Positions 4,230 through 34,279 of a DNA stretch of 64,000 nt are shown here, piece by piece. A program made the translations under genes and the position numbers. Each line of letters opens with the position of its first letter. Positions within the stretch are counted from its first letter, which is position 1. The DNA is from a plasmid. The notes under the pieces are model-generated. The model saw only the letters and a list, made by a program, of their open reading frames with translations. It did no database searches and had not been told where the DNA came from. The stretch lies in sequence record NZ_AP019754.1, one strand, 5' to 3'.

Positions 4230-5147
4230 ATGCGGCTCCGTCACATAGAGGTATTTCAGGCCATCGTACAGACCGGTAGCATCAGCGCTGCAGCGCGCTT
4301 GCTGAATGTGTCCCAGCCGAATATCAGCCGCGTGCTGAATCATGCGGAACAGCAATTGGGTTTTGCACTGTTTGAGCGACGGATACAGGGAATGAGCGTC
4401 ACGGCGGAAGGACGACGCCTGCTGCCCGAAGTAGAAGATCTTTATCAACGTTTGCAATCCATTACTCAACTCACCGAACAACTTCGACGCGGCGAAGGGC
4501 AGATAGTCCGCGTGGGTGCGGCTCACGCGTTCGGTCAAATGGTGCTGGCACCCGCATTGGTCACCTGGCGACAACAGGTGGCCTCGGTCAGTGTCGAACT
4601 GGTCACGGAGCACTTCAAGACTTTGTGCCAAATGATTCTGGAAAATCAGCTTGATTTCGCCCTGGTGTTTGGTCAACAGGTGGATGCAGACCTTTTGGCT
4701 GAACCGCTGTTCCAGTCTTCCATGGTGGCGCTGCTGCCGCTCAATCATCCCCAGCATGAACCCGTTTCGCTGGAGTGGTTATGCAGCAATAATCTGCTGA
4801 TGATGCAGACCCAGGATCCGCTTGGGCGCGTATTACACCGCGCGCTGCGCGATAAAAAGCTGAATCCCGCTGTGTCACTGTCGATTAAAACCTATTCGGT
4901 GATTGCGGATATGGTCCTGGCAGGCGGCGGCGTGGGCGTCGTGGATCTGTTCACGGCATGCCGCTATGCCGACCAGCTAAAATTGCTCCCCGTCGCGCAA
5001 CCGTTGCCGTTTGAAGTGATGCTGATCAGCCGTCGTGATAAACCCCAGTCACAGTCCACCCTGCAACTTAAGCAGGTAATACGTAACAGGCTGTGGGAGA
5101 TTGCCCGACAGTGCGAAGCACAGTTTCTGGTTGAGAAAGCAAGCTAA
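4230..5147 (+). CDS. LysR family transcriptional regulator
   Basis: N-terminal HTH (LRHIEVFQAIVQTGSISAAARLLNVSQPNISRVL) followed by a LysR substrate-binding domain. 305 aa. Confidence 0.85.
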   Translation: MRLRHIEVFQAIVQTGSISAAARLLNVSQPNISRVLNHAEQQLGFALFERRIQGMSVTAEGRRLLPEVEDLYQRLQSITQLTEQLRRGEGQIVRVGAAHAFGQMVLAPALVTWRQQVASVSVELVTEHFKTLCQMILENQLDFALVFGQQVDADLLAEPLFQSSMVALLPLNHPQHEPVSLEWLCSNNLLMMQTQDPLGRVLHRALRDKKLNPAVSLSIKTYSVIADMVLAGGGVGVVDLFTACRYADQLKLLPVAQPLPFEVMLISRRDKPQSQSTLQLKQVIRNRLWEIARQCEAQFLVEKAS

Positions 5148-5329
5148 AAACGGCTTCTGGTGAATCTGGTGGTACACCTGCTATCGGCAAAGGTTTGCGT
5201 CACTGTTTTGCCTTTTGAAACCTGTTCTGGTCGTCCCGGTGCAGTCAGGGATACTTATTTCTTTTAAAGACATCCGGCGCTTTCTGTCCCCGTCAGTTGT
5301 TCCGGCAGGGACTGAGAAGGGCACACACT

Positions 5330-7387
5330 TTACTTCTGAATCCAGCAAGGGCCCGGCCTGCCAAAGAGGTATCCCTGAAGTAACGGACACTCATTCGTCT
5401 TTAGCCACTCCGCCTGGGCAGGCGTTTCCACGCCCTCTGCGGTCACTTCAACCTGGAGTTGACGGCAGAGTGAAAGAACGGAGCTGACGATGGCTGCCGC
5501 TCCGGAGTCCAGGTGCAGATCGTTGATAAACGACCTGTCTATTTTTATCCTGCTGAACAGTCCGGAACTGAGGTGGTTCAGTGAAGAAAAGCCCGTACCA
5601 AAATCATCCAGTACGATATGAATTCCGGTATCCCTGAACCTGCGAATCATTTCGTAACTGCCTTCGGGGTTGTCGAACAGCGCCGACTCGGTGATTTCGA
5701 GCTCCAGCCGGTTTGGGTGCAGCCCACTCTCAATAAGAACCGTTTTCACCCTGTTGGCCAGCTGTGGATCACGAAACTGACGGGGCGAGATATTAACTGC
5801 CACGCGTTCGTGCCCTGACCACTCCGCCATATCGTTGCAGGCTCGCTCAAGCGCGAATGCGCCAATATCATGAATAAGCCCGGTTTTTTCAGCGAGCGGG
5901 ATGAACACGTCAGGCGAAACATTTCCCCTTACAGGATGATTCCAGCGCAGCAGGGCTTCATAGGAAACCACTTCCTCACTGATGCTGCAGACGACGGGCT
6001 GATAAAAAATCTGCAGCTCACCGTTCTCGAGCGCGCCACGCAGGTCATTTTCCAGGCTAAAGCGCTCTGCCGCCGAACTGGCTAGCTCATCGGTAAAAAT
6101 TACCCAGCCTTTGCGCCCGGCTGACTTGGCAGCGTAGAGGGCGATATCGGCTGCCGATAACATGCTTTCGGCATCTCGCGCATAGCCCGGAAAGAGGCAA
6201 ACCCCGAAGCTGCAACCCGAGGTGACTTTCCGCCCTTTCAGCATGAAGGGCTCCTTCAGGACCATCGTCAGGCGCGATGCTGTTTCGCTTGCGTCTTCTG
6301 CCGAGCTAATGCCGGGCAAAACGGCAACGAACTCGTCACCGCCCGTGCGGGCCAGAATGTCGCCCGGGCGCAGGACTGACAGCAGCCGTGCTGAAACCTC
6401 AATGAGCAAGGTATCGCCCGCCGCGTGACCCAGAACGTCGTTGACGCTTTTAAACCGGTCGATGTCAGACACCATGACCGCAAAGGGTTCGTCACCGTCC
6501 AGAAGCGTTTCAAGCTCAGGCATCAGGCCACGGCGGTTGAGAAGCCCTGTCAGCGGATCATGAAGGGCCAGATGGTTCGCTCTGACCGCAGCCTGATACT
6601 CCGCCGTGACGTCCAGTATGGTATACAGGAGATAGTCATCTCCGCCGCCCGAATTCAGCCTTTCGGCGGAAATCCGTAATGAAAATTCCGGCTCATTATC
6701 GCCCGAAGAAACCGTTTCACTAAAGCCCTGGTCGGGAAGGAGGTCAAATGCCTGCCTGAACACAGCCGCGAGATTGTCTGGCAGGCCCGCAGGCAGGGCG
6801 GTTCGGGTATTCCCACTGCGTACCCGTTCTTGCAGACAGGACAAATTCATGGCCGTCGGGTTCGCGCGTATGATGTCCCCCGATGCAACGTCACACAGGA
6901 TGAGCGCGCAAGGCGTGTGGCTGAATACGGCGTCGAGCACCTTATTTGTGTCTGATAACTCGGTTTCCCTTTTCAGGATAACTTTTTGAGCGATGCGGAG
7001 CGCCGCCCTTTCCTGATAGCCTTGTGAAACGTCACGCACGATTTTGATAAAGGCCGCATTATCTTCATCGGACGGATTGAGAAATTCTATTTCAACTGAT
7101 GCCCGAAACGCGCTGCCGTTTTTGCGCAGGCGCCAGCCCTCTCCTGTGAACTTGCCGCGCTCACGGGCCTCCCTCAGGTTGGCCTCAGGGATATTCCTGG
7201 CCTGCTCATCTTCATCATAAAAAACCGAAATATGCTGCCCTCGGATATCGCGGCTATCCCATCCCTTGATCTCACGGCATCCAAGATTCCAGCTCATCAC
7301 TTCTCCGGTGGAAGACAGCAGATATATCGCACAAAGAGACGTTCTGGCCACGGCGGCCCCCAGTTGGTCATTGGTTACGGATTTCAT
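5330..7387 (-). CDS. Cytoplasmic PAS-sensor GGDEF-EAL protein (c-di-GMP cyclase/phosphodiesterase)
   Basis: 685 aa. It has N-terminal PAS-like repeats, a GGDEF motif (ARTGGDEFVAVL) and an EAL motif (EALLRW) with DDFGTG. Confidence 0.9.
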   Translation of the reverse strand: MKSVTNDQLGAAVARTSLCAIYLLSSTGEVMSWNLGCREIKGWDSRDIRGQHISVFYDEDEQARNIPEANLREARERGKFTGEGWRLRKNGSAFRASVEIEFLNPSDEDNAAFIKIVRDVSQGYQERAALRIAQKVILKRETELSDTNKVLDAVFSHTPCALILCDVASGDIIRANPTAMNLSCLQERVRSGNTRTALPAGLPDNLAAVFRQAFDLLPDQGFSETVSSGDNEPEFSLRISAERLNSGGGDDYLLYTILDVTAEYQAAVRANHLALHDPLTGLLNRRGLMPELETLLDGDEPFAVMVSDIDRFKSVNDVLGHAAGDTLLIEVSARLLSVLRPGDILARTGGDEFVAVLPGISSAEDASETASRLTMVLKEPFMLKGRKVTSGCSFGVCLFPGYARDAESMLSAADIALYAAKSAGRKGWVIFTDELASSAAERFSLENDLRGALENGELQIFYQPVVCSISEEVVSYEALLRWNHPVRGNVSPDVFIPLAEKTGLIHDIGAFALERACNDMAEWSGHERVAVNISPRQFRDPQLANRVKTVLIESGLHPNRLELEITESALFDNPEGSYEMIRRFRDTGIHIVLDDFGTGFSSLNHLSSGLFSRIKIDRSFINDLHLDSGAAAIVSSVLSLCRQLQVEVTAEGVETPAQAEWLKTNECPLLQGYLFGRPGPCWIQK

Positions 7388-7785
7388 GTGGCTATCCTTG
7401 ATGAGTTCATCGACCTGTTCGGAGATGATCTGGCGTTAAAAACGATTATCGGCGCCGTTAGCCAGAAACAGAGACAAAAATTTGTAAAAATTTAGTTAGA
7501 GGCCATATTACGCCACCTGTCTGGACCAGCCCAATCATAATGCACACGGGACTTAGCAGCGTTCGCTTTTCGCTGTAGAGTCAGTCGTTTCACGCACAAT
7601 TAATTTTTTAAAAGTCTGCCGCAAGTGACTTAATGCAAATCCAAACAGCGCTATCTGCTGTACGCATTCTGGAGGCACCGATCTCACCAATACGGTTATC
7701 ATCCCGCAAAAAGCGCGGAAGCCTTTTGCCGCTATCCTGTTTATGTGTTTAGATTGATAGAAATCTATCATCACCAGGCTGAGTA

Positions 7786-8808
7786 ATGAAAAAAATCTCT
7801 ATGTCAGCGGTGGCACGAGCAGCCGGCGTGGGCGTCGCTACCGTGGATCGCGTGCTTAACAACAGAGCTTCTGTTAAACAGGAAACCCGGCAACGGGTCC
7901 TGCGCGCCGCTGAAGCCTTAGGCTACCGTGAAGACCTCATTAAGGTCATGACGCCGGACGCGACAGCGGCCAACATCCCCGTGCGCATCGGGTTCATTCT
8001 GCTGCCCAATAATTATTCTTTTTATCAGGTACTTTCAGAAGAAATCAGTCGATGCGCAGAGGGAAAACTGGCGACGAAACCGGCGTTTATGTGGGCCGAT
8101 ATTCACGATGTGGAGAACGTCGTATCGTCTCTGGAAGCGCTGGCAGAACGTGTTGATATCATCGGGCTTGTTGCTCTGGATCATCCCCTTATACGACATA
8201 CGATTAAGCAGCTTTCCGCCTCAGGTGTGCAAATTTTCACGTTGTTTTCTGATCTCTCTCCCTGTGGTCAGGCGGGCTATATCGGGCTGGATAACCTCAA
8301 AGCAGGACGTACGGCGGGATGGTTTGCTGAACGCATGACAGAAAAAGAAAGTGTGATTGGCGTGCTACTGGGTGACCACCGTTTCAACTGCCAGGAAAGC
8401 TGTGAAATAAGCTTTCGTTCATACCTGCGTGAAAACAGAAAAGATGCCGTGGTTCTGGAGCCTCTCCAGACGCTTGAATGTATCAATGGGGGCTATCTGG
8501 CCGCGACGCAGCTGCTGAAAGACAACCCATTCATTACAATAATTTATGCGCCATGTGGTGGTGTGGAAGGGGTGATTAAAGCCGTTTCTGAAAGCCCGCG
8601 GGATGATATAAAAATTCTCTGTCATGGTCCGTTTATCGGCGATGAAATGGCGCTGATTGAGGGACAGATCGACATCATGATACGTCACCGCATTGATGCC
8701 GTGGCTGAAAAGATCGTCTCTGTTTTTATCAGCAGATATCAAGAGAACGATCGCAATCCGGTTTACGTTACCCTGCCTTTCGATCTCATCACTCGGGAAA
8801 ATATCTGA
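7786..8808 (+). CDS. LacI family transcriptional regulator
   Basis: N-terminal HTH (ISMSAVARAAGVGVATVDRVLNNRASVKQETRQRV) plus a periplasmic-binding-protein-like sugar-binding domain. 340 aa. Confidence 0.85.
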   Translation: MKKISMSAVARAAGVGVATVDRVLNNRASVKQETRQRVLRAAEALGYREDLIKVMTPDATAANIPVRIGFILLPNNYSFYQVLSEEISRCAEGKLATKPAFMWADIHDVENVVSSLEALAERVDIIGLVALDHPLIRHTIKQLSASGVQIFTLFSDLSPCGQAGYIGLDNLKAGRTAGWFAERMTEKESVIGVLLGDHRFNCQESCEISFRSYLRENRKDAVVLEPLQTLECINGGYLAATQLLKDNPFITIIYAPCGGVEGVIKAVSESPRDDIKILCHGPFIGDEMALIEGQIDIMIRHRIDAVAEKIVSVFISRYQENDRNPVYVTLPFDLITRENI

Positions 8809-9023
8809 ATCACTCCGGCTTCTGCCGAAGGCTTACGCAGCCTGCATTTGATGTAAAACAATCAAATAAATGATATAAAAAAATCATGATCGCTATCAAA
8901 TAACTCACTTCGAAGGGTTGCCGGTGTTAAAAAACCGGCGCAATACTGCGCGCATTGAGCCAGACGATTGCCGTCGGGGCGCTCAGTGTTCATCAGTGTT
9001 GCCGCATCCGGAGAAAAAACATC

Positions 9024-9929
9024 ATGACGATTTCCATCGCGACTGCGCCCTGCAGCTGGGGAGTGGATGACCCGAAGAATCCTTTTCTTCCCCCCTGGCA
9101 GAGCGTGCTTAAAGAAGCCGCGCTTGCAGGTTATAAAAGCCTGGAACTGGGGCCGTGGGGATATTTGCCCGTCCAGCCGGATGCGCTAAAAGCTGCGCTT
9201 GCCGAATTCCAGCTGTCGATCGTTGCTGGCACCCTTTTCGACGATTTGGTGAGTGAAGAGAACTTTCCGGCCATGATCGCGCTGACCCATAAAATCTGTC
9301 ACAACCTGAGCTTCCTTTCCGAACAGGGCAAACCTACACCTTATCTCGTCATCATCGATTTCGGCGATCCTGAACGGGCAGCCACCGCGGGCCAGTCTGA
9401 AAAAGCGCCACGACTGAACGACAGCGACTGGCAGACCATGATGAGACATATCACCGTTCTGAGTGAGATCGCCTGGAAAGAGTACGGTGTCAGACCGGTC
9501 ATTCATCCCCATGCAGGCGGCTGCATTGAGTTTGCCGATGAACTGGAAAGGCTGGTTCGCGATATTCCTCATAGCGTTGCCGGCCTTTGTCTGGATACCG
9601 GCCATTTGTATTACGCCGGCATGGATCCTGTTGCTGCGCTGGAACGTTACTGGGACCGGATTGATTACCTTCATTTCAAAGACGTCAACGAGGTTGTCTG
9701 GCGTCAGGCCATCAAACAAGGGCTGGATTTTTTCACCGCCTGTGCCCAGGGCGTCATGTGCCCACTTGGCAGCGGCGCTATCAACTATCCCGATGTCCAC
9801 GCATTTCTGCGCCAGCGCCATTATCAGGGCTGGATCACTATTGAACAGGAAAGGGATCCGCGTGATGCGGACACCAGCCTGCGTGACGTCACAGCAAGTC
9901 TGCACTATCTGCACTCAGTCGGTTTTTAA
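9024..9929 (+). CDS. Sugar phosphate isomerase/epimerase family protein (xylose isomerase-like TIM barrel)
   Basis: The ORF track opens at 8955, but the ATG at 9024 (MTISIATAPCSWGV...) has a GGAG upstream. Motifs are consistent with AP-endonuclease-2 / xylose-isomerase TIM barrels (HPHAGG, LDTGHL). About 301 aa. Confidence 0.75.
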   Translation: MTISIATAPCSWGVDDPKNPFLPPWQSVLKEAALAGYKSLELGPWGYLPVQPDALKAALAEFQLSIVAGTLFDDLVSEENFPAMIALTHKICHNLSFLSEQGKPTPYLVIIDFGDPERAATAGQSEKAPRLNDSDWQTMMRHITVLSEIAWKEYGVRPVIHPHAGGCIEFADELERLVRDIPHSVAGLCLDTGHLYYAGMDPVAALERYWDRIDYLHFKDVNEVVWRQAIKQGLDFFTACAQGVMCPLGSGAINYPDVHAFLRQRHYQGWITIEQERDPRDADTSLRDVTASLHYLHSVGF

Positions 9930-9940
9930 GGAGAAAGGTC

Positions 9941-11110
9941 ATGATTAACGGCATTAAACCGCTTAAAAATTCACTGCGGTGGGGCATGGTGGGCGGCGGC
10001 GGTACCAGTCAGATTGGCTACATTCACCGTTCATCAGCACTCCGCGATAACACATTTACCTTAGTTGCCGGGGCGTTCGATATTGATGCGGCACGTGGCC
10101 GCGCCTTTGGTGAAGCTCTGGGCCTTTCCCCGGACCGGTGCTATGCCGACTATGAAACCCTGTTTGCATCAGAAGCAAAACGCGATGATGGCATTCAGGC
10201 TGTCTCGATCGCCACACCCAACAACACGCACTTTGCGGTCTGCTGCGCAGCGCTTGAAGCCGGTCTCCATGTGATATGTGAGAAACCGCTGTGCTTTACG
10301 GTGGAAGAAGCTGAACATCTGGCGAAGCTGAGCCTGGAGAAAAAGAAGATCGTCGGCGTGACTTACGGTTACACCGGTCATCAGCTCATCCTTCAGGCCA
10401 GGGAGATGATCGCGCAGGGATTACTGGGTGACATCCGCATCGTCAACATGCAGTTTGCACACGGTTTTCATCACGAAGCCGTTGAACAGAATAACGCCAG
10501 CACCAGCTGGCGCGTCGACCCGCGCTTTGTCGGACCCAGTTATGTTCTGGGTGATTTGGCGACCCATCCGCTGTGTATCGCTGAAACCATGGCACCCGAA
10601 CTGAAAATCAGACGGCTGCTTTGCTCACGCCAGAGCTTTGTGAAAAGTCGGGCGCCTCTCGAAGACAACGCATTTGTTCTGATGGAATACGAGAACGGCG
10701 CAGTGGGAAATCTGTGGGCCTCAGCCGTCAACTGCGGATCAATGCATGGGCAGAAAGTCCGCATCGTTGGCTCCAGAGCCAGTTTTGAGTGGTGGGATGA
10801 GCAGCCAAACCAGCTGCGTTTCGAAATTCAGGGTGAGCCGGTGCGCATTCTGGAAAGAGGCATGGACTATCTGCACCCGGCTGCTCGTGAAGATGACCGG
10901 ATAGGCGGCGGTCATCCGGAAGGACTTTTCGAAGCCTGGTCGAATCTCTACCGACGTTTCGCGCTGGCAATGGATGCAACCGATCGGGGCGACGACGCAT
11001 TCCTGAAAAACTTCTGGTATCCCGATGTCCATGCCGGCCTGGCTGGCGTCAGATGGGTGGAAAACTGTGTCCGTTCAGCCGACTCCGGCTCGGTGTGGGT
11101 GGAATGCTGA
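9941..11110 (+). CDS. Gfo/Idh/MocA family NAD(P)-dependent oxidoreductase
   Basis: N-terminal Rossmann (LRWGMVGGGGTSQIGYIHR) and an EKPL motif (HVICEKPLCFT). 389 aa. Confidence 0.85.
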   Translation: MINGIKPLKNSLRWGMVGGGGTSQIGYIHRSSALRDNTFTLVAGAFDIDAARGRAFGEALGLSPDRCYADYETLFASEAKRDDGIQAVSIATPNNTHFAVCCAALEAGLHVICEKPLCFTVEEAEHLAKLSLEKKKIVGVTYGYTGHQLILQAREMIAQGLLGDIRIVNMQFAHGFHHEAVEQNNASTSWRVDPRFVGPSYVLGDLATHPLCIAETMAPELKIRRLLCSRQSFVKSRAPLEDNAFVLMEYENGAVGNLWASAVNCGSMHGQKVRIVGSRASFEWWDEQPNQLRFEIQGEPVRILERGMDYLHPAAREDDRIGGGHPEGLFEAWSNLYRRFALAMDATDRGDDAFLKNFWYPDVHAGLAGVRWVENCVRSADSGSVWVEC

Positions 11111-11239
11111 GGTCCTGGTCGTGAGAACCGGACTCAGCCTGTCACACAGGGTTGAGAACGCCTGACATTCGATCCGTTTAAAGATTTTCGCTGCCTGAAC
11201 CCGACTCAGGCAGCAAGAGACAACGCAAAGGTGGCATCA

Positions 11240-12130
11240 ATGAAAATCGCTTTCGATGTAGATGTAATCAAAGATCTGGGCATCACCAAAATGGTCCAAC
11301 AGGTGTCGGAATGGGGATACAACTACATTGAGCAGTCTCCACATCCGGAAATTAACCCTTTCTATAAGCATCCTCGTGCCAGCCGCGAGATCATGGCTGA
11401 GTATAAAAAGGCGCTGCGCGAAACAGGAGTGGAAATTTCATCGTTTATCTGTGTTTATCGCTGGTCTGGTCCCGATGAACTGCGCCGACAGGCGGCCGTT
11501 AAAAACTGGAAACGTATGGTGGAGATCGCCGTCGAAATGGGCGTACAGGTCATCAATACCGAACTGGCGGGCGATCCTAATCAACCCGAAATCTGCGATG
11601 AAATGTTTTACCGCTCAATGGAAACGCTGCTTCCGCTGTTCGAACGTGAGGGTATCCGTGTTGAAATTCAGGCGCACCCGTGGGACTTCTGTGAAGAGAG
11701 CGATGAGACTGTCAATATGGTCAAGTCGTTCAGGAGTGATAACGTTAAATATGTCTACAGCGTTCCTCATACCTTTTTCTATGATAAAGGAAAAGGCGAC
11801 GTAGAGAAGATGCTCCGTCATGCCGGACACGATCTGTCCCATGTTCTTATTGCCGATACCATGAACCACACGAAGCATTGCCGTTACATCGTTAACCCAC
11901 CAGGCGTGGATGCCACTATTCATCAGCACGTTGGCATCGGCGAAGGCGAAGTAGATTTTGACACGCTGTTCCGAACGTTGCGTGAAATGAAGTTTGCAGA
12001 GCAGACGTTCAAAGTAGGGGGAGAGCCTATTGTGGCCGCATCGCTTTTTGGTTATCCGGAAAAAATGAAGTATCAGGCCGTGGAAACCCGCGAGCGGATA
12101 GAGCGAGAATTGCTTACGCCTCATCCATGA
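11240..12130 (+). CDS. Sugar phosphate isomerase/epimerase family protein (xylose isomerase-like TIM barrel), second copy
   Basis: The ATG at 11240 has an AAAGG 8 nt upstream; the alternative GTG at 11231 is less likely. TIM-barrel isomerase-like over about 296 aa. It is not a duplicate of the 9024 gene. Confidence 0.7.
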   Translation: MKIAFDVDVIKDLGITKMVQQVSEWGYNYIEQSPHPEINPFYKHPRASREIMAEYKKALRETGVEISSFICVYRWSGPDELRRQAAVKNWKRMVEIAVEMGVQVINTELAGDPNQPEICDEMFYRSMETLLPLFEREGIRVEIQAHPWDFCEESDETVNMVKSFRSDNVKYVYSVPHTFFYDKGKGDVEKMLRHAGHDLSHVLIADTMNHTKHCRYIVNPPGVDATIHQHVGIGEGEVDFDTLFRTLREMKFAEQTFKVGGEPIVAASLFGYPEKMKYQAVETRERIERELLTPHP

Positions 12131-12529
12131 GTGATGTGCCCGGTGACATGTAAAATTGCTGCCGGGCTTTAAAATATGCCTTCCCAGTATTTGCATGCCA
12201 GCGCCTTCCTGTAGAGCAGGCCATAATCAGCACCGTTGAAGCCGCACAAAGGTCGGGTGCCCCTTTGTCGTACTCGCCTGCTTGCCGCTGCGTTCAGCGA
12301 TTTTACGCCTTTCTCTCCGATAATGACCGATGACCTTTTCTCTCACGCCTTACCACAGAAGGCTTAATCAGAATCAGGGAATGAGGGCTGATTTTTACAC
12401 TGTGCAAATTAAGCTGGCTCAGAAGGGGGCAACCGCCCGGTAGATCACTAACAGATCGTCGCTATGTTGACGAGAGAGGCCAATGCAGGCCATGCGCTTT
12501 CGCATAGCCTGTCTCTGTGGTCTGCACCG

Positions 12530-13858
12530 CTACATCATTTGTGGCTGGCGAATAACGTTACCTTTATCAAAGCGTGAGAGCCGGTAGGGGGCAAGGTCGG
12601 TATAAACGGGCTTGTTCGTCATCATCTGCGCACACAGCAGTCCCGCACCTGGCCCGATGGCAAAACCATGACCACTAAAGCCAGAGGCAATAAACATGCC
12701 CGGGATCTGGCTCACTTCATCAATAACCGGCACCAAATCCGGTGTGGTATCAATCCAGCCCGCCCAGGCATAATCGACTTTTGTTCCCTCCAGCGCGGGG
12801 AACAAGCGGATTAATTCTGCCAGACCATCATTAACGATGCGTTTATCCGGCGTGGGATCGAGAACCCGGATTTTTTCAAAAGGGGAAGGCGTGTCATGAG
12901 ACCAACTCCCCGAGGCTTCAGGGCCTGAAAAGAATGAGCCATTCAGCCGGATTTTCAGTTTCTTTGCCACTTTACTACGGAACATAGGATAAAACTTTGC
13001 GGCATATCGGATGTTCTGCGGCGCCAAATCGATCTGGCCCAGGCCCGGAACGGCAACGGTATAACTGCCATCCAGACGGCGACGAACACAGAGTTGCGGC
13101 GTGCTCAGACAACCTTTTACAATTTCCGGGGCGGCGGTTGTTTTAAACACCGTGCCCAAAATATTGGCGGCGGGGAGTTCAACGCCATATTGTCTGCAAA
13201 AACGCGAGCTCCATGCACCGCCGCAACAGATCACCCGGCTGGCTTTGACTAACCCGCGCTCTGTCCAGACGCCAGAAACGCGTCCGGCGCTGATATCCAG
13301 TGCCCGTACCGCGCAACGCTGGAAAATGCTGGCACCCAAATTTTGCGCACCTTTTGCGATGGCCGGTACCGCCTGTGACGGTTCTGCGCGTCCATCCGTC
13401 GGCGACCACACGCCGCCACGCCAGGCTGTTTTGTCACCAATACGTTCCTGAGCCTCACGCGCGGACAACAACTGGCTGGTAAAGCCAATCTGCTTTGCCT
13501 GCTGGCCCCATTTTTCCCAACGCGCCAGGTCAGCGTCATTTAGCGTGCCATACAGGATGCCGTTGCGCCTGAAGCCCAGATCCATTCCGATTTCAGTACT
13601 GAGTTCATCCCAGCGCTGCAGGCTTCGTATCGCCATCGGCAACTCATGCAAATCACGGTTCTGTTGGCGCACCCAGCCCCAGTTTCTACCTGACTGCTCA
13701 CCGGCAATCACGCCTTTTTCAAACAGCGCAACAGATACGCCTTGTTTAGCCAGTTCATATGCCGTTGACGTCCCCACAACGCCGCCCCCTATTACAACAA
13801 CATCGACGGAGGTGGGGAAGAGGGTGCTGTCATTAACGCTATCGACCTTAATTCGCAT
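12530..13858 (-). CDS. FAD-dependent oxidoreductase, DAO family (PuuB / sarcosine-oxidase-beta-like amine oxidase)
   Basis: N-terminal dinucleotide-binding motif VVVIGGGVVGTSTAYELAKQGVSVALFEKG. 442 aa. The C-terminal GFSGHGF is typical of the DAO family. Confidence 0.85.
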   Translation of the reverse strand: MRIKVDSVNDSTLFPTSVDVVVIGGGVVGTSTAYELAKQGVSVALFEKGVIAGEQSGRNWGWVRQQNRDLHELPMAIRSLQRWDELSTEIGMDLGFRRNGILYGTLNDADLARWEKWGQQAKQIGFTSQLLSAREAQERIGDKTAWRGGVWSPTDGRAEPSQAVPAIAKGAQNLGASIFQRCAVRALDISAGRVSGVWTERGLVKASRVICCGGAWSSRFCRQYGVELPAANILGTVFKTTAAPEIVKGCLSTPQLCVRRRLDGSYTVAVPGLGQIDLAPQNIRYAAKFYPMFRSKVAKKLKIRLNGSFFSGPEASGSWSHDTPSPFEKIRVLDPTPDKRIVNDGLAELIRLFPALEGTKVDYAWAGWIDTTPDLVPVIDEVSQIPGMFIASGFSGHGFAIGPGAGLLCAQMMTNKPVYTDLAPYRLSRFDKGNVIRQPQMM

Positions 13859-13872
13859 GAGTTAACCTTGTT

Positions 13873-14484
13873 TCAAATATGATGTCGGGGCGGAATATGC
13901 ATAATCCACAACACACGGGCTTCGGTATCGCTGTCGTTAAAAATGTTATGCGGCAGATGGCTTTTAAACTGAAAGCTGTCGCCCGCTTCGATGAAGGTCG
14001 TTTCACCATTCACCTCAAGCGCAAGCCGGCCCTCCATGACCACACCTGCTTTTTCACCTATCCCCGTCAGCATCTCTTCAGAACGCGTGCGGGGAGGGAT
14101 GCTGATATACATGAACTGGATATCGTGTTCGCCGGACGGCGATAACATCTCTTTGCTAATGCCCTGCTTGCCAACCTGAAAATGCGGTCGCTCACGCCAG
14201 CGACGAACATAGTGTTCAGCACCTGGCCGCATCACCTCATGCTGTTCAAGAAAAGCGGTCAAGGGGACATTCAAGACCACCCGAAGCTGCTCCAGTACCC
14301 GTACCGTCGGGTTAGCCAGATTACGTTCAATCTGGCTAATTGCCCCTGCCGACACATTGGCCTGTTGCGCCAGTTCTTTGATAGTCATATTGCGAGACTT
14401 GCGTATTAATTTTAACCGTACGCCAATATTGATCTCGACGGCACTCAGATCCTCAGAGTGCATTAACGCTGTTTTCATCACCAT
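13873..14484 (-). CDS. XRE family transcriptional regulator with C-terminal cupin domain (PuuR-like architecture)
   Basis: HTH_3 (MTIKELAQQANVSAGAISQIERNLANPTV) followed by a cupin fold. 203 aa. Confidence 0.8.
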   Translation of the reverse strand: MVMKTALMHSEDLSAVEINIGVRLKLIRKSRNMTIKELAQQANVSAGAISQIERNLANPTVRVLEQLRVVLNVPLTAFLEQHEVMRPGAEHYVRRWRERPHFQVGKQGISKEMLSPSGEHDIQFMYISIPPRTRSEEMLTGIGEKAGVVMEGRLALEVNGETTFIEAGDSFQFKSHLPHNIFNDSDTEARVLWIMHIPPRHHI

Positions 14485-14523
14485 GTTCCTTAAGGTTTCG
14501 TGCCTCCGTGCATGAAAGCGCGA

Positions 14524-23681: not shown

Positions 23682-24827
23682 ATGATGAATAAAACGATTC
23701 TGGCGCTAGCCGCCGTTGCAAGTGCTTCGGCCATTGTGCCGCTGATGGCTCAGGCATCTTACGCGTATGTGGGAACCTATAATCCCAATGGCGAAGGGGT
23801 TTATCGATTTATCCTCAATGCGCAGGGTGAACTGTCGGGAAAAACATTGGTGAGTCAACTGCCCAACCAGGCACAGATGGTGGCGTCAGCGGATGGTAAA
23901 CATCTTTATGTGGCGAGTGAGACCGAGAAAGGTAGCATCACCGCTTATCAGATTGGTACGGACGGTTCGCTCACGGCATTAAATCAGGTCGACACGCAAG
24001 GCAAAGGACCGGTGTACCTGTCCCTGACACCCGATCAGCGTTACCTGATGGTCGCAAATTATGTCAGCGGCAGTATTACAGTGTTTGCGGTAACGCCAGA
24101 AGGCAAGCTGAGTGAGGCTGTCGATCATCATCAGGACAGCGGCCCGGCTGGCGCAGGCAAACCGGCCGCAGCGGTAGACGGCAGCTTTGCCATCAGCGAT
24201 CACAATGGTCCGCATGCACATATGGTCGCCAGCGATCCCACGGGCCAGTTTGTTTACTCGACGGATTTGGGGCTGGACCGCATTTACCAATACCACCTGA
24301 ATAAAGACGGTACGCTGACGCCCGGCAAACCCGCATGGATAAACGCCTCGTCTGCCGGTGCAGGCCCCCGCCATTTCGTTCTTAGCGCTGAGGGTCATGC
24401 GCTCTGGTTAGTGAATGAAGAAGCCTCCACGCTCACACATTACCTCATTAATCCGCAAAGCGGTGCTTTGCAGGAAAAGGCCACGGTTTCTACGCTGCCT
24501 TCCGGTTATAAAGGCACCAGTTTTGCAGCCGGGTTAGTCATTGATAAGGGCGGGAAAAATCTTTACGTCGCCAACCGTCTGCATGACAGCATTGCGCACT
24601 TTGAGGTCAATGCTAACGGCACACTGACGCATAAAGATGATGTGTGGACGCGCGGGGATTACCCCCGAACGCTGACATTATCCCCTGATGGCAGCATGAT
24701 TTACGTGATGAATCAGCGTAGCGATAACATCACCAGCTTCAGGGTGGATAAAGCGAGTGGTGCCATCAGCTTTACCGGGAACTATGTTGCCGTAGGCGCG
24801 CCTTCACAGATGGTTATTGTTCCCTGA
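23682..24827 (+). CDS. Lactonase family protein (7-bladed beta-propeller; 6-phosphogluconolactonase / YbhE-like), secreted
   Basis: Signal peptide (MMNKTILALAAVASASAIVPLMAQA) followed by the YVGTYNP...LYVASE pattern of the YbhE/Lactonase fold. 381 aa. Confidence 0.8.
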   Translation: MMNKTILALAAVASASAIVPLMAQASYAYVGTYNPNGEGVYRFILNAQGELSGKTLVSQLPNQAQMVASADGKHLYVASETEKGSITAYQIGTDGSLTALNQVDTQGKGPVYLSLTPDQRYLMVANYVSGSITVFAVTPEGKLSEAVDHHQDSGPAGAGKPAAAVDGSFAISDHNGPHAHMVASDPTGQFVYSTDLGLDRIYQYHLNKDGTLTPGKPAWINASSAGAGPRHFVLSAEGHALWLVNEEASTLTHYLINPQSGALQEKATVSTLPSGYKGTSFAAGLVIDKGGKNLYVANRLHDSIAHFEVNANGTLTHKDDVWTRGDYPRTLTLSPDGSMIYVMNQRSDNITSFRVDKASGAISFTGNYVAVGAPSQMVIVP

Positions 24828-24995
24828 AACATTGATGCGGATAACATGCACGTCACACTGTGGTGCGTGTTACCGACGCAGCGTGCAGGTGCACGAGAAG
24901 GTCAGTCTCGCGCACCTGCCCGTTCAAGATCACTAACGGGCATGATCGATAAGCACTCAGGCCCAGCGATTATCGCTGCCAGTGCTAACGCAAAA

Positions 24996-27900
24996 TCAGG
25001 TGTTATCCTCCACAATCACCGCAACCCGCTGTCCGGCGCGCACGGCACTGCCTGGCTGTACGTTAACCTGCTGGATGATCCCATCGCAGGGTGCCAGCAA
25101 CGGAATCTCCATTTTCATGGATTCCAGTACCACCAGAACATCCCCCGCCTGAACCCGACTTCCCACCGTGGTTTGCACTTGCCAAAGGTTGCCGGAAACC
25201 GGGCTTTCGACACCCTGCTCGCCCTGCTGTAGTGGTGCATCACCGCCCTCTTCTGCCACGTTCTCCTGGCTGTCGAAATGGGCCTGACCACTGGCGATCC
25301 AGCGATCGCGTTCCGCATTGAACGCCTGTTGCTGGTGGTCACGAAACGCCGCGATGCTTTGCGCCTCATGAGCGAGAAACTGCTGATAATCACTCAACCG
25401 CAGCGTACTGGGCTCAATGCGCAGCGGATAACGCCCCAGCGGGAAATCGCGGCGGATTTGCACCAGTTCCTCGGCGGATACAGGGTAGAACCGCAGTTGA
25501 TCAAAGAAGCGCAGCAGCCAGGGTTTCCCCGCAAAATCAGCAACCTCTCGATAGCGATTCCACATCTGAAGCGTGCGCCCCACAAACTGATAGCCGCCAG
25601 GTCCTTCCATGCCGTAAACGCAGAGGTAAGCGCCGCCGATACCCACCGAGTTCTCTGCCGTCCAGGTGCGCGCCGGGTTGTATTTTGTGGTGACCAGGCG
25701 ATGGCGCGGATCCAGCGGTGTCGCAACCGGCGCCCCCAGATAGACATCGCCCAGCCCCATAACCAGATAGCTGGCCTCAAACACCGTCTCCCAGACCGCC
25801 TGTTCGTCAGGCAGATCGTTAATGCGGCGAATGAATTCAAGGTTACTGGGGCACCACGGTGCATCAGGGCGTACCGTCGTCATGTACTTTTCAATCGCCT
25901 GGCGACAGGCGGGATCGTCCCAGGAAAGCGGCAGATGTACTACGCGAGTTGGCACCTGCAGATCATCACTCAGGCAAACCCTGAGCCACTCGCCGCGTAC
26001 CCAGTCCAGCAGCGCGTCATGGGTGAGGATTTCAGGCTGAAAATGGATCTGCAACGAACGAATCCCGGGCGTGATATCAATCACCCCGTCTTTTGCATGC
26101 GCTTCCAGCGCCTGCATCAGGGCATGAATGCGAAAACGCAGAACCAGATCCAGCTCCGGCTCCCCGGCTTCGAGTAGCAGATGCGTATCGCCAGAAAGTC
26201 GCGCGACCAGGCGCTTATCGGCCTCACCGCAGGTCATCACGATCGGCGAGGTCAGCGGCGCAGGTTGCCAGGCTGTCGCCTGGCCACAGAGCGTTGCCAG
26301 CTCCTGGCCTCGCGCTTTAGCCAACTGGCGCGCGGTGGTTAAATCCACCGAGGTAAAGCGCACTTTATCACCGGCTTTCAACTGCCCTAACTGCCAGAGA
26401 TCGGCTTCGATGACTGTGACCGGACAAACGAATCCCCCGAGGCTGGGTCCATCCGGGCCCAGAATCACCGGCATATCGCCGGTAAAATCAACCGCACCTA
26501 CCGCGTACGGATTGTCGTGAATGTTTGACGGATGCAGTCCGGCTTCGCCCCCGCTGTCTCGGCTCCAGATGGGCTTGGGCCCAATCAGGCGGACGCCCGT
26601 GCGGCTGGAGTTAAAATGCACTTCCCATTCTGTGGCAAAAAAAGTGGCGATATAGTCCGGCGCGAAGAACTCCGGCGCACCGTGTGGACCATAAATTACC
26701 CGTAGGGTGCGGATCTGCGGGAGATCCGTGCGCAATGCCTCAGGAAGTGCCACGCCAGCTTCCGTTGCTGCCTGTGGGGCCAGGTGCAGCACATCGCCGC
26801 TACGCAGTGCGCGTCCGGCGTGGCCGCCAAACTGGCCAAGCGTAAAGGTGCTTTTACTGCCTAAATACGTTGGCACCTGAATGCCGCCGCTCAGGCAGAG
26901 ATAGCTTCGCACGCCCGCCCCACTCACAGCACCCAGCTTTAACGTCGCCCCGGCGGGAATGGTAAAAACACAATCCATCGGCACGGGCTGGCCATCCAGG
27001 GTAGCGCTCAGTGGTGCACCGCAGATGACGGCCTGGATGGCGGTATTGAATTTCAGAGTGGGTCCGGTGAGGGCCATTTCCAGTGCGGCTTCCCCCTCGT
27101 CATTGCCCAGCAGCCGATTGCCTGAACGCAGGGCGCGGTCGTCCATCGGCCCCGATGGCGGTACGCCGACCGCCCAGTAGCCCAGACGGCCCGGATAATC
27201 CTGCACGCTGGTTTGCGTACCGGCGCCTAGCACCTCAACCGTCGCTGCCTGATAGCTCAGCTGTTCCAGACAACGGGTCCAGGGTTCTCCCTGAACAAAG
27301 GGCGCAAACGCTAAAATTTGCTGCAGATAGAGGCGGTTGGTTTCAACACCGTATAAACGCGTTTCTGCCAGCGCCTGCGCCAGTGTGGCAATGGCCTCCG
27401 GGCGGCTGGGCCGCCAGGCGATCGTTTTCGCCAGCAGCGGATCAAAAAAGGGCGGCACTTCGCAACCGGCTTCAATCCAGTGATCAATGCGCAGGCGAGC
27501 ATCCTGTTGGTCGGGAAAGGCAACGTCTGTCAGCAGGCCCGGTGAAGGCTGAAACTGCCGTCCCGGATCTTCCGCATAAATGCGTGCCTGGATAGCATGG
27601 CCTTGTGGCGCAAGCCCGGCAGCCAGCTCGCGCAGGGGCGGCAAGGTGTCCGCAGCCAGTTCAATCATCCATTTCACCAGGTCAACGCCCCAGACCTGTT
27701 CTGTTACGCCATGCTCGACCTGAAGGCGAGTGTTGACCTCCAGGAAGTAAAATTGTTGGTTCAGGCTGTCATAGACAAACTCCACGGTGCCCGCGCTGCG
27801 ATAGTTCACTGCTTTACCCAGCGCAACTGCCGCCTCGCAGAGCGCCTGTGCCATGCCTTCAGGCAAATTGGGGGCAGGTGTTTCTTCGATGACCTTCTGG

Positions 27901-28601
27901 TTACGCCGCTGCACCGAGCAGTCACGCACGCCCAGCGCGATAACGTCTCCTTGCCCGTCACCAAAGATCTGCACCTCAAGATGACGTGCGCGTTCGATAT
28001 AGTTCTCGAGAAACACGCCGGCATCACTAAAGTTGTTCTGCCCCAGCCGCTGCACGGTATCAAACGCTTCCGTCAGTTCATGCGAATCGCGACAAACGCG
28101 CATGCCAATCCCGCCGCCACCCGCCGTACTTTTCAGCATCACCGGATAACCAACGGTCTCGGCGACGCGGCAGGCTTCGGCGGCATCGGCCAGTAACTCG
28201 CTGCCTTCCAGCAAGGGCACACCTTCAGCTTTCGCCAGAGCACGGGCCGTGTGCTTCAGACCAAAAGTCCGCAACTGCTGTGGCGTTGGGCCAACAAAAA
28301 TCAGCCCTGCGGCCTCGCAGGCCTCAGCGAACCCGGCGTTTTCAGAGAGAAAACCGTAGCCCGGGTGAATCGCCTGTGCACCGCTTTGCTGCGCTGCGGC
28401 AATAATTTTTTCAGCGGCCAGATACGTTTGTGCCGCCGGGCCGTCGCCAAGGGACAACGCTTCATCGGCATCACGAATATGCAGGCTGCCCAGATCGGCC
28501 TCGGCATAGACAGCCACCCCCTTGACCTGCATGGCGCGCAGGGTGCGTAAGATGCGGCAGGCGATCGCACCGCGGTTAGCAATCAGTAAGGTATCAAACA
28601 T
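24996..28601 (-). CDS. Urea carboxylase family enzyme; given the ykkC riboswitch context, probably guanidine carboxylase. It carries biotin carboxylase, CT (KipI/KipA-like) and BCCP domains.
   Basis: 1201 aa. The N-terminal biotin carboxylase starts MFDTLLIANRGAIACRIL, and the C-terminus has the biotinyl-lysine motif ESMKMEIPL. The middle region is allophanate-hydrolase-subunit-like (cyclophilin-fold). Confidence 0.9.
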   Translation of the reverse strand: MFDTLLIANRGAIACRILRTLRAMQVKGVAVYAEADLGSLHIRDADEALSLGDGPAAQTYLAAEKIIAAAQQSGAQAIHPGYGFLSENAGFAEACEAAGLIFVGPTPQQLRTFGLKHTARALAKAEGVPLLEGSELLADAAEACRVAETVGYPVMLKSTAGGGGIGMRVCRDSHELTEAFDTVQRLGQNNFSDAGVFLENYIERARHLEVQIFGDGQGDVIALGVRDCSVQRRNQKVIEETPAPNLPEGMAQALCEAAVALGKAVNYRSAGTVEFVYDSLNQQFYFLEVNTRLQVEHGVTEQVWGVDLVKWMIELAADTLPPLRELAAGLAPQGHAIQARIYAEDPGRQFQPSPGLLTDVAFPDQQDARLRIDHWIEAGCEVPPFFDPLLAKTIAWRPSRPEAIATLAQALAETRLYGVETNRLYLQQILAFAPFVQGEPWTRCLEQLSYQAATVEVLGAGTQTSVQDYPGRLGYWAVGVPPSGPMDDRALRSGNRLLGNDEGEAALEMALTGPTLKFNTAIQAVICGAPLSATLDGQPVPMDCVFTIPAGATLKLGAVSGAGVRSYLCLSGGIQVPTYLGSKSTFTLGQFGGHAGRALRSGDVLHLAPQAATEAGVALPEALRTDLPQIRTLRVIYGPHGAPEFFAPDYIATFFATEWEVHFNSSRTGVRLIGPKPIWSRDSGGEAGLHPSNIHDNPYAVGAVDFTGDMPVILGPDGPSLGGFVCPVTVIEADLWQLGQLKAGDKVRFTSVDLTTARQLAKARGQELATLCGQATAWQPAPLTSPIVMTCGEADKRLVARLSGDTHLLLEAGEPELDLVLRFRIHALMQALEAHAKDGVIDITPGIRSLQIHFQPEILTHDALLDWVRGEWLRVCLSDDLQVPTRVVHLPLSWDDPACRQAIEKYMTTVRPDAPWCPSNLEFIRRINDLPDEQAVWETVFEASYLVMGLGDVYLGAPVATPLDPRHRLVTTKYNPARTWTAENSVGIGGAYLCVYGMEGPGGYQFVGRTLQMWNRYREVADFAGKPWLLRFFDQLRFYPVSAEELVQIRRDFPLGRYPLRIEPSTLRLSDYQQFLAHEAQSIAAFRDHQQQAFNAERDRWIASGQAHFDSQENVAEEGGDAPLQQGEQGVESPVSGNLWQVQTTVGSRVQAGDVLVVLESMKMEIPLLAPCDGIIQQVNVQPGSAVRAGQRVAVIVEDNT

Positions 28602-28712
28602 AAGCGGAACTCTCAGGAAAGCGGGTCGTCCCGCAGAAAGTCGACATGTCCCCTGGGGCCGTCCCCGGGGCTTCTCCTTTTCAGGCGTGCGTATTGTTTA
28701 GTCGCACCAGGC

Positions 28713-29348
28713 TCAGTTCCATACCAATACCTCGGCGGGCGTGGGATTCCAGCCGTTACAGGGGTTATTCAGCTGCGGACAGTTTGAGATTAAGACCGCC
28801 GCATTACACTCGGCGCGCAGTTCAACATATTTGCCGGCGGCGGAAATACCGTCTTCAAAGGTCAGTCCACCCTGCGGAGTGACGGGAACGTTCATAAAAA
28901 AGTTGATGTTGGCGCCGATATCGCGTTTATGCAGGCGACCGTCATGCAGGCAGGCACAAAGAAAATTATCCCGGCAGCTGTGCATATAGCGCTTGTCGTG
29001 AGCATAACGTACCGTGTTACTTTCCTGCGCGCAGGCACCGCCCAACGTATCGTGGCGGCCACAGGTATCGGCGACAATGGTCAGCAGCGGATTGCCCATA
29101 TTCGAGTAAAGTACGCTGCCGGTGGTCAGGTAAGCATTACCCTGACGGCGCAGCGTACGCTGGGGATCGTAACGCTCGCGCGGATTATCTGCGTTGTAGA
29201 ACAGCGTATCGATCGCCTGATTCCCTTCCAGGTCGAGCAGACGCAATGTTTGCCCTTGTTTGACCTCAAACAGCCAGGGTTCGCCCGCCGGAATCACATG
29301 ACGGTAAACCGCATCCTCTGGGCGGCGGTCGCTGGAAATAATCATCAT
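28713..29348 (-). CDS. DUF1989 protein: urea-carboxylase-associated family 2, a carboxyguanidine deiminase subunit-like protein
   Basis: The start ATG at 29348 ([14 protein letters not shown]...) has a GGAG 6 nt upstream and lies just after the stop of the preceding DUF1989 gene. It is a paralog of the upstream gene (shared ...GNPLL...ADTCGRHD / ...[16 protein letters not shown] blocks). Confidence 0.75.
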
Positions 29349-29358
29349 CGCTGACTCC

Positions 29359-30087
29359 TTACAGGGCAAAAAGTTGAGTGTTCTGTATTGCGCGCTGATT
29401 TTCATCGCGGATGAACAGCGCTTCGGTGGTAGCCTGTGCGTCATCGGCCTGATACCAGCTCAGCTGGATGGGACGCGGTGCATAGTCAGGGGCAGGATCC
29501 ATTGGATGGGGGAGCGCGGTCAGGACGATCAGCACGTCCATTGGGGCAAACAGCTCAACAACATCCCCTGCGCGGCTATGTTCGGTATCGAAGCGGAAGC
29601 GGCCATCTTCATCGACGGTGACTTTGCTAAAGAAGTTAACGACCATGAGCAGATCTTCAAGACCCAAATCCCATTTGCCCATCTCGACCAGCAGATTATC
29701 GACTCCATTGCGGTAAAACCCATTCCGCAGCTCCTGATAGCGCCCTGCGCCATATTTTTCGCGCGTTTCCGCCGCGTTAAGTACGCCACCAAACGGGTCG
29801 TGCCAGCCACAACTGTCCGCCACGATCCCGGCGAGTACGCGGCCCATATCGGAATAAAAACAGTGGCCGGTAGTGAGCCGGGCCGTATGCTGGCCCTTCA
29901 GCGTATCCGGTAGATTAAGGCGTTCACTTTTCTCATGCGGATTGAGCATCATCATGCTGACATTCGCGCCGCCATCAATATCGGTCAGGCGCAGGATGTG
30001 CCCTTTGCGCAGAATGAATGAGGTGTGCGCCCCGCCGGGAAGCCGCTCTTCGCGCAGGCTGGGCGCTGAGTGAAAACGTGCCGTCAT
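29359..30087 (-). CDS. DUF1989 protein: urea-carboxylase-associated family 1, a carboxyguanidine deiminase subunit-like protein
   Basis: 242 aa, paralogous to the downstream DUF1989 gene. It overlaps the ATPase gene stop by 4 nt. Confidence 0.75.
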
Positions 30088-31678: not shown

Positions 31679-31702
31679 GACATGAACTCCCGTGCTCAGT
31701 GG

Positions 31703-32761: not shown

Positions 32762-32780
32762 GGTTAACCTCTGGTTGGCA

Positions 32781-32822
32781 CAAAAAAGGAGCAGCGCGAC
32801 ACCTGACGGTGCTGCTGTCTCC
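32781..32822 (-). terminator. Riboswitch expression platform: an intrinsic terminator overlapping the 3' end of the aptamer
   Basis: On the minus strand the stem AGCAGCAC...GCGCUGCU (GC-rich) is followed by CC-UUUUUU. The 5' arm overlaps the aptamer 3' GGGAG-ACAGCAGC. Confidence 0.5.
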
Positions 32823-32912
32823 CGGGCTTTTGTCCCGCCGTGTAACCTCTCAGAGGTCGCCAGCTCTCGGACCAGACATTCACCTGCGTGAACCGGAACC
32901 CTAGCCAGCTAT
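32815..32912 (-). ncRNA. ykkC: Guanidine-I riboswitch (ykkC-yxkD leader) in the 5' UTR of the ABC / DUF1989 / carboxylase operon
   Basis: The minus-strand RNA reads ...GCUGGCUAGGGUUCCGG...GGUCCGAGAGCUGGC...CCUCUGAGAGG...ACGGCGGGACAAAAGCCCGGGAG. It contains the signature ykkC blocks UAGGGUUCCG, GGUCCGAGAG and ACGGCGGGACAAAAGCCCGGGAG. Confidence 0.75.
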
Positions 32913-34157: not shown

Positions 34158-34279
34158 GAGTCTGCCTGCGACGATAGCCAGCAGAGAAGCATATTGACTG
34201 TTACTGGAATTTACCGCTTAAAGCCTGTGCGACGGGAAGCTGCACCCTCTTTGAGAGGGTGCAGAGACAGCGAGAAAAA

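Follow-up and report, generated by a model that had tools for sequence, protein, structure and literature searches.

Positions 7786 to 12130 of a 64,000-nucleotide stretch of plasmid record NZ_AP019754.1 (the window) hold four open reading frames (ORFs) that lie in the same direction on the + strand. From the ORF listing and Pfam domains, they encode a LacI-family regulator, a xylose-isomerase-like TIM barrel (TIM1), a Gfo/Idh/MocA dehydrogenase (DH), and a second such barrel (TIM2). Neither a transporter nor a kinase is encoded between these positions. A sequence-only reading of this DNA had described two distinct barrels and a Gfo/Idh/MocA dehydrogenase under a LacI regulator, and Pfam confirmed this composition, with the barrels resolving into an IolE-like protein and IolH. 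We document here the gene content, the family assignments, the conservation of the unit, its behavior as an indel, and its operator motif. All three enzymes point to the breakdown of inositol-like plant cyclitols, not of glycosides or anhydrosugars. The cassette is probably, though by no means certainly, a portable (horizontally mobile), LacI-repressed accessory module of cyclitol (inositol-type) catabolism. What is new is the finding of paralogs of the inositol oxidation and dehydration enzymes together with IolH, under a dedicated LacI, as one cassette. The features are as follows.

7670 to 12223, no strand: whole cassette, a single present/absent block in Pantoea ananatis LPP-1 plasmids, delimited by alignment to NZ_CP099536 (locus L091)
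7755 to 7770, no strand: operator O1, perfect palindrome TGATAGAAATCTATCA, whose end lies 16 bp 5' of the LacI start codon
7786 to 8808, + strand: LacI-family regulator, the presumed cassette repressor (PF00356 and PF13407)
8849 to 8864, no strand: operator-like O2, TGATGTAAAACAATCA, 5' of TIM1, a TGAT-N8-ATCA match
8871 to 8886, no strand: operator-like O3, TGATATAAAAAAATCA, 22 bp from O2, a TGAT-N8-ATCA match
9024 to 9929, + strand: TIM1, an IolE-family TIM barrel and distinct paralog (PF01261, AP_endonuc_2)
9941 to 11110, + strand: DH, a 389-amino-acid (aa) Gfo/Idh/MocA dehydrogenase of an orphan subfamily with solved structures (PF01408, PF02894, PF22725)
11240 to 12130, + strand: TIM2, an IolH ortholog and sugar phosphate isomerase/epimerase-type barrel (AP_endonuc_2), whose ORF is also read from 11231

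TIM1 almost certainly starts at the ATG at 9024 and not at the TTG at 8955, because RefSeq uses the ATG and all orthologs align from that methionine. For TIM2, the ATG at 11240 is the most likely start, as RefSeq has it and the orthologs align from it. The RefSeq product names of the cassette enzymes are generic only.

In an NCBIfam profile search, TIM1 scored 170.5 bits against the IolE model TIGR04379, with the next family at 31 bits. It also aligned over its full length (residues 7 to 283) with the IolE structure PDB 3CNY (95 bits, E 4.6e-26), and in this alignment the IolE motifs H-x-H, DTGH, HFKD, and E-x-E-x-DP are kept. Its orthologs are 69% identical in a Salmonella island described below and 56% identical in the Pseudomonas syringae group, and the identity of TIM1 to the true IolE of that Salmonella island is 29%. 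By these comparisons TIM1 is a paralog within the IolE family and not an equivalog. The two barrels of the cassette belong to different families; IolE is the best match of TIM1, and TIM2 has only weak matches in NCBIfam and the PDB.

DH is 71% identical to PDB 7D5M/7D5N from Azotobacter vinelandii (template modeling [TM] score, 0.94) and 68% identical to 3DTY, an oxidoreductase of P. syringae (TM score, 0.90). The deposit title of 7D5N names an "inositol dehydrogenase homolog" from A. vinelandii in complex with NADH and myo-inositol; it is the only ligand complex of a close DH homolog. The catalytic motifs EKP (C113-E114-K115-P116) and GD-x3-H (D205...H209) of DH were invariant in 24 homologs. 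By Foldseek, the next characterized neighbors were scyllo-inositol dehydrogenases, just ahead of levoglucosan dehydrogenase (LGDH). DH scored below the cutoff of every curated equivalog model in NCBIfam; it is about 24% identical to the IolG of the Yersinia iol cluster and about 50 residues longer than IolG. Literature searches found no characterization or enzymology for 7D5M/7D5N, 3DTY, or the A. vinelandii inositol dehydrogenase homolog. The identification of 3DTY as the "mocA" of Pseudomonas iol loci described in a preprint was considered and rejected, since the close homologs in the P. syringae group lie in a stand-alone cassette outside the iol locus.

TIM2 is 77 to 82% identical, over 99% of its length, to the proteins that NCBI names IolH in Salmonella, Klebsiella, Yersinia, and Escherichia coli, and the JGI label for the window protein is "myo-inositol catabolism protein IolH." In the iol clusters of Salmonella, Klebsiella, Yersinia, and Vibrio, iolH adjoins iolD (as seen in loci L083, L085, L086, L087, and L092), and in Petroclostridium it lies within the iol cluster. 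The iolH of the window is not inside an iol operon. It follows the DH gene, with no core iol gene within the 64 kb and no iol genes elsewhere in the window besides the cassette. The sole PDB sequence match of TIM2 was TM0416, which we take to be Thermotoga IolO; the NCBIfam IolO model gave a weak match (31 bits, E 1.3e-4), far under its cutoff of 300. The AlphaFold (AF2) model of TIM2 (predicted local distance difference test [pLDDT], 74; predicted TM score [pTM], 0.79) is a generic xylose-isomerase-like barrel whose nearest folds are ketose 3-epimerases, UlaE, and IolI. DgpB-C ranked 45th among the fold matches, the AL1 lyase 48th, and the 2-hydroxy-3-keto-glucal hydratase AtHYD 50th, and no PDB sequence match to DgpB/C, CarB/C, or AL1 was found at E<=0.01. 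The predicted structure lends no specific support to a glycoside-lyase role. No demonstrated IolH activity was found in the literature. In Salmonella Typhimurium, iolH, iolG2, iolI2, and others are uncharacterized, and their region is dispensable for in vitro growth on myo-inositol (PMC10783015).

Two surveys of gene neighborhoods were made, one of 80 reference-genome loci anchored on DH and one of 80 metagenome loci anchored on TIM1. Among the reference genomes, TIM1 lies immediately upstream of DH in 69 of 80 loci, the cognate LacI gene is upstream of TIM1 in 61, and an IolH gene is present within 8 kb in 39. In the metagenomes, TIM1 and DH are adjacent in 75 of 80 loci, the remaining contigs being truncated, and IolH is adjacent in 37; a porter was found in 3 of these loci and core iol genes in none. 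The LacI-TIM1-DH unit is conserved in plant-associated Pantoea and in the P. syringae group, as well as in Erwinia, Klebsiella, and Serratia. The P. syringae-group cassette stands alone, outside the iol locus and without a transporter, and comprises LacI (32% identical to that of the window), TIM1 (56%), DH, and an IolH-family barrel (36%). The position of IolH varies. Among the 80 genome loci, a position 3' of DH is confined to P. ananatis, one further Pantoea, and L070; in most Pantoea, IolH is divergent and upstream, usually with a second Gfo/Idh/MocA gene. The sequence-only reading had noted that no transporter or kinase accompanies these genes. This holds for the cassette of the window. 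The absence of a transporter is lineage specific, as a sugar-porter gene (TIGR00879, 333 bits; cutoff, 238) separates LacI from TIM1 in eight loci of the Erwinia or Winslowiella type. The Erwinia porter is 33 to 36% identical to iol-island porters, a level that is not diagnostic.

The arrangement in other Pantoea is more elaborate. In most non-ananatis loci (L006 to L066), a second LacI, an IolG-like dehydrogenase, IolH, and a 345-aa Gfo/Idh/MocA protein are encoded about 1 to 6 kb upstream of the LacI gene. The IolG-like protein of many of these loci scored 313 bits against the IolG cutoff of 355. The extended set thereby totals three dehydrogenases, two barrels, and two repressors, without lower-pathway genes, and the P. 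ananatis cassette is a trimmed version of it.

The plasmid of the window is a large LPP-1-type plasmid of P. ananatis, with 99% identity to pPANA1 of strain LMG 2665; the plasmid of strain R100 is 100% identical over the cluster. The cassette is present in 11 of 15 matching Pantoea plasmids. In the cassette-minus plasmid NZ_CP099536, the flanks align at about 94 to 95% identity with window positions 5000 to 7669 and 12224 to 14500, and the 4,554 bp between them (7670 to 12223) are replaced by 272 bp of unrelated DNA (6729 to 7000 of that plasmid's locus, L091). In strain JT1-188, which has this 272-bp replacement, the FAD oxidoreductase gene comes right after the upstream EAL gene, without the cassette. 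A 4,554-bp indel between conserved flanks indicates that the four genes come and go together with their upstream control region, as a single block. When 7670 to 12223 was compared with L091 6729 to 7000, the indel junctions showed no obvious repeats, direct or inverted. Near and distant DNA searches of 5,426 complete E. coli genomes did not find the cassette. The recurrence of the grouping in both surveys and its gain or loss in one block establish that it is not a chance juxtaposition.

The regulator carries a PF00356 helix-turn-helix domain (52 bits; cutoff, 27) and a Peripla_BP_4 domain, PF13407 (57 bits; cutoff, 35), and reached no NCBIfam equivalog cutoff. It is related only to other cassette-linked LacI proteins, including the divergent LacI of the P. 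syringae-group cassette, to which it aligns over its full length. The motif TGAT-N8-ATCA has four exact matches in the 64 kb of the window, compared with 1.04 expected, and three of the four lie in the regulatory DNA of the cassette (at 7755, 8849, and 8871). O3 has one mismatch to the stricter consensus of other genera, TGATA-N6-TATCA. A TGATA-N5-7-TATCA palindrome was found in 55 of 61 orthologous loci, at most 220 bp upstream or 330 bp downstream of LacI; the remaining 1.0 Mb of locus sequence held 12 matches, most of them beside LacI or IolH starts. This enterobacterial motif is absent from the Pseudomonas cassette. By phylogenetic footprinting, the conserved palindrome supports a predicted autoregulation of LacI and repression of the TIM1 operon. 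The earlier proposal that the genes form a functional unit under a LacI-type repressor is supported, and the unit pairs an NAD-dependent Gfo/Idh/MocA dehydrogenase with metal-dependent TIM barrels.

The link to inositol catabolism is clearest in Salmonella. In subsp. diarizonae, Oranienburg, Newport, and Paratyphi B, the genes stand in the order iolD-iolH-TIM1-DH-iolG inside the iol island, and the island IolH, TIM1, and DH are 80, 69, and 72% identical to the window proteins. The same island also holds iolC, iolA, iolB, and a true iolE. The trio was likewise found beside iolC/iolD or IolG in L038, L070, and L080. Gene order suggested that TIM1 and DH might be iolI2 and STM4434 of S. Typhimurium, and this was rejected, as in the Typhimurium-type island (L092) an MFS transporter occupies the position assigned to STM4434 and an unrelated barrel of 271 aa that of iolI2. 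Neither TIM1 nor DH is meaningfully similar to iolI2 or iolG2, and IolH is the only protein shared with that type of island. The core genes iolBCDEG were present in all 21 Pantoea genomes surveyed (PMC5808187), so the lower pathway is available in trans.

From these data we infer the substrate class and each catalytic step of the following scheme. When no inducer is present, LacI would bind the TGAT-N8-ATCA palindromes O1, at its own gene, and O2 and O3, at TIM1, and keep the genes off, as the footprinting suggests. On induction, DH would use NAD+ to oxidize a single hydroxyl on the ring of an inositol stereoisomer or derivative, giving an inosose, a step suggested by the myo-inositol complex of its 71%-identical homolog and by its intact motifs; the substrate would probably be one that core IolG handles poorly. 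Given the membership of TIM1 in the IolE dehydratase family, the chemistry is most plausibly an oxidation with a beta-elimination after it, and TIM1 would carry out metal-dependent abstraction of the alpha-proton and beta-elimination on the inosose. IolH might then shift the stereochemistry or the keto position of the intermediate so that it could enter the core route of IolD-IolB-IolC-IolJ-IolA; of the four steps, this last one is the weakest, given that no IolH activity was found in the literature. The iol genes at other places in the genome would provide uptake and the lower pathway in trans, a proposal that would explain a cassette without a transporter or kinase.

The scheme resembles the IolG and IolE steps of Bacillus subtilis and Salmonella, in which an NAD-dependent Gfo/Idh/MocA enzyme and then an IolE-family AP_endonuc_2 barrel oxidize a ring hydroxyl and beta-eliminate, and in some Salmonella the cassette genes themselves lie within the iol island. 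It differs in that TIM1 and DH are only distantly related to true IolE and IolG, both scoring under the model cutoffs, and in that the cassette, unlike iol operons, has its own LacI and operator and is usually unlinked to iolBCD. TIM2 has the length of iol-operon IolH, at about 80% identity, yet the window gene stands apart from the core cluster and is joined to LacI-TIM1-DH instead. DH is of the same subfamily as 7D5M/7D5N and 3DTY, and the P. syringae-group gene sits in the same kind of LacI/TIM1/DH/IolH-like cassette. Alternative cyclitol routes that use extra Gfo/Idh/MocA dehydrogenases and TIM barrels include Thermotoga IolM/IolN/IolO and rhizopine MocA/MocC. The general architecture and the oxidize-then-eliminate chemistry are also those of LgdA/LgdB/LgdC, DgpA/DgpBC-CarBC, and the 3-keto-glucoside eliminase/hydratase, yet the cassette enzymes have no specific sequence or structural affinity to any of these systems.

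Several observations weigh against an accessory cyclitol module. Most copies are unlinked to core iol genes, which were linked in only 3 of 80 genome loci and in none of the 80 metagenome loci. TIM1 falls below the IolE equivalog cutoff (170.5 versus 290 bits), and DH below that of the IolG model TIGR04380 (56.6 versus 355 bits). The sequence and structure scores of DH to levoglucosan dehydrogenase are only slightly under those to scyllo-inositol dehydrogenase. The 7D5N protein is titled only a "homolog," and its myo-inositol may be a soaked ligand and not the true substrate. All fold matches of TIM2 are generic, at 12 to 17% identity, a level at which epimerase, isomerase, dehydratase, and lyase subfamilies are not separable. 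The Klebsiella, Serratia, and Erwinia copies have no nearby IolH, so IolH may not be an obligatory partner. The window LacI is unrelated to the LacI-type genes beside the iol clusters compared, and literature searches found no published activity for any cassette enzyme or close homolog.

The sequence-only reading had placed the cassette with levoglucosan, C-glycoside, and 3-keto-glycoside catabolism, in which DH would make a 3-keto sugar and the barrels would serve as lyase and hydratase. We consider a glycoside, C-glycoside, levoglucosan, or anhydrosugar route quite unlikely. It has in its favor the shared architecture of a Gfo/Idh/MocA dehydrogenase with two different xylose-isomerase-like barrels, the top NCBIfam match of DH (levoglucosan dehydrogenase NF052479, 77.7 bits), the occurrence of LGDH 6A3F and DgpA among the PDB matches of DH (about E 1e-17 to 1e-13), a weak match of TIM1 to the hydratase 8RO4 (AtHYD; E 3.4e-4), and the physical separation of most cassettes from iol genes. 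The LGDH score is, however, far under its cutoff of 650 bits and is equaled or bettered by scyllo-inositol dehydrogenase, and the complex of the close DH homolog holds myo-inositol. The score of TIM1 to IolE exceeds that to any lyase or hydratase by about 70 bits (95 bits to IolE versus 23 to AtHYD), and TIM1 has no PDB match at E<=0.01 to DgpB/C, CarB/C, or AL1 lyases; TIM2 is IolH, with the lyase and hydratase folds in ranks 45 to 50. No glycoside hydrolase, glycoside-type transporter, or aglycone-handling gene was linked in the 160 surveyed loci, and where a transporter is linked, it is a sugar porter of the monosaccharide/polyol type. What survives of the proposed 3-keto-sugar beta-elimination pathway is its oxidize-then-eliminate logic, given the place of TIM1 in the IolE family; the glycoside or anhydrosugar substrate class does not.

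Another reading is plain redundancy, with DH and TIM1 as spare IolG and IolE isozymes acting on myo-inositol and scyllo-inosose and IolH as a passenger, that is, ordinary plasmid-borne inositol catabolism. Some submitters and JGI do label TIM1 "inosose dehydratase" or "2-keto-myo-inositol dehydratase," 7D5N contains bound myo-inositol, and the Salmonella island has the genes among core iol genes. That island, however, already encodes a true IolE and a 337-aa IolG-type dehydrogenase of the iol cluster, which makes the TIM1-DH pair additional and not a replacement. The failure of both proteins at the curated equivalog cutoffs also speaks against redundancy, as does the maintenance of the TIM1-DH pair as a separate unit across orders, and a dedicated LacI whose operator is itself conserved implies that the inducer differs. 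We judge redundancy unlikely. The comparison with inositol families (IolE and IolG/IolW) raised in the sequence-only reading came out divided. The barrels cluster with inositol-pathway families; DH, however, is not an IolG or an IolW, TIM1 is below the IolE equivalog cutoff, and the ordinary core pathway is not what the cassette encodes. It is very unlikely that the cassette acts outside the cyclitols, on a ketose, polyol, or sugar acid (for example, in a YcjQRS-like oxidation-epimerization shunt), or that it performs a reductive or isomerizing interconversion of inositol isomers and does not degrade a new substrate. The ketose 3-epimerases and UlaE among the nearest folds of IolH would suit such a role, and the many Pantoea loci that add two Gfo/Idh/MocA dehydrogenases and a second LacI without lower-pathway genes resemble an interconversion set. 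The clear IolE affinity of TIM1, the myo-inositol complex of the DH homolog, and the fixed place of IolH inside catabolic iol clusters argue the other way.

A further reading is a dedicated route for a plant O-methyl-inositol (such as D-pinitol, ononitol, or quebrachitol), which we regard as a highly improbable long shot. DH would oxidize the ring next to the methoxy-bearing carbon, TIM1 would eliminate methanol instead of water, and IolH would correct the stereochemistry before entry at IolD. Pinitol is still degraded by Erwinia after deletion of both vanB-type demethylase genes, its only recognizable ones, and the demethylation step was left unexplained (PMC9788770). The "iolT1/iolG/iolE" genes knocked out in that study were probably core genes, because the mutants also lost the use of myo-inositol (PMC9788770). 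If true, this reading would explain enterobacterial use of pinitol without a demethylase and would give IolH its first function.

The association of IolH and the 7D5M/3DTY dehydrogenase subfamily with an IolE paralog in one repressed cassette offers a testable hypothesis for all three proteins. The DH subfamily has three sets of crystal structures, and no published function was found for it. The cassette-plus and cassette-minus plasmids of P. ananatis are natural, isogenic-like comparisons. Should a plant cyclitol prove to be the substrate, the cassette would be a niche-adaptation trait of the LPP-1 plasmid; if the cassette is only a redundant inositol branch, the finding would be routine.

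The cassette is flanked by genes of other units, upstream by a PAS-GGDEF-EAL gene and a LysR regulator and downstream by a convergent FAD oxidoreductase gene, a helix-turn-helix-cupin gene, and an amino-acid ABC operon. Promoter and terminator scans did no better than shuffled sequence, and no Rfam family matched in window 7000 to 13000. The LacI-TIM1 spacer (8809 to 8950) was predicted to fold, as RNA, far better than shuffled sequence (-40 kcal/mol; z, -4.09). The operator-like palindromes account for much of this fold, and a structured 5' leader is possible. Two further hairpins lie around iolH.

11190 to 11214, + strand: hairpin with a perfect 9-bp stem, GCUGCCUGA...UCAGGCAGC, in the DH-IolH spacer, with no T-run after the stem
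12138 to 12167, + strand: possible weak terminator hairpin just 3' of the IolH stop, an 8-bp GC-rich stem followed by CUUUAAAAU

The 129-bp DH-IolH spacer as a whole did not fold better than shuffled sequence (z, -1.19). Its hairpin lies upstream of iolH, the gene that is placed upstream and divergent in most other Pantoea. The hairpin at 12138 to 12167 was not called by the terminator scan, and its fold was not better than that of shuffled sequence.

Three neighborhoods departed from the usual pattern. In L030 (Candidatus Pantoea multigeneris), TIM1 appears to be absent: LacI (6634 to 7659) abuts DH, and IolH and its partner dehydrogenase are kept. This could be a natural deletion of TIM1 or an assembly problem. 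A 675-aa TIM1-DH "fusion," P0099 (L093), was rejected as Rosetta-stone evidence, being a frameshifted call on an error-rich contig with fragmented neighbors; such entries could mislead automated Rosetta-stone inference. In Klebsiella and Raoultella (L068 to L078, 8001 to 9164), a second DH paralog with 73 to 75% identity lies in a different cluster, which has no TIM1, LacI, or IolH. Beside DH, that cluster encodes a 564-aa FAD_binding_2 oxidoreductase, a 272-aa AP_endonuc_2 barrel, an MFS transporter, an MFS_2/GPH-type sugar transporter, a 342-aa Gfo/Idh/MocA protein, and an MFS protein with a YajR domain. With its glycoside-type transporter, it looks nearer to the 3-keto-sugar idea than does the window cluster.

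Elsewhere in the window, annotation converted from the R100 plasmid leads us to expect, at about 24400 to 40500 and 52700 to 58900, a urea carboxylase/allophanate-type cluster with an ABC transporter, a three-subunit membrane sugar dehydrogenase (small subunit, GMC flavoprotein, and cytochrome c), a flagellin, and several chemoreceptor genes. The urea carboxylase, sugar dehydrogenase, flagellin, and chemoreceptor genes are unrelated to the cassette and fit a role of the LPP-1 plasmid in niche adaptation.

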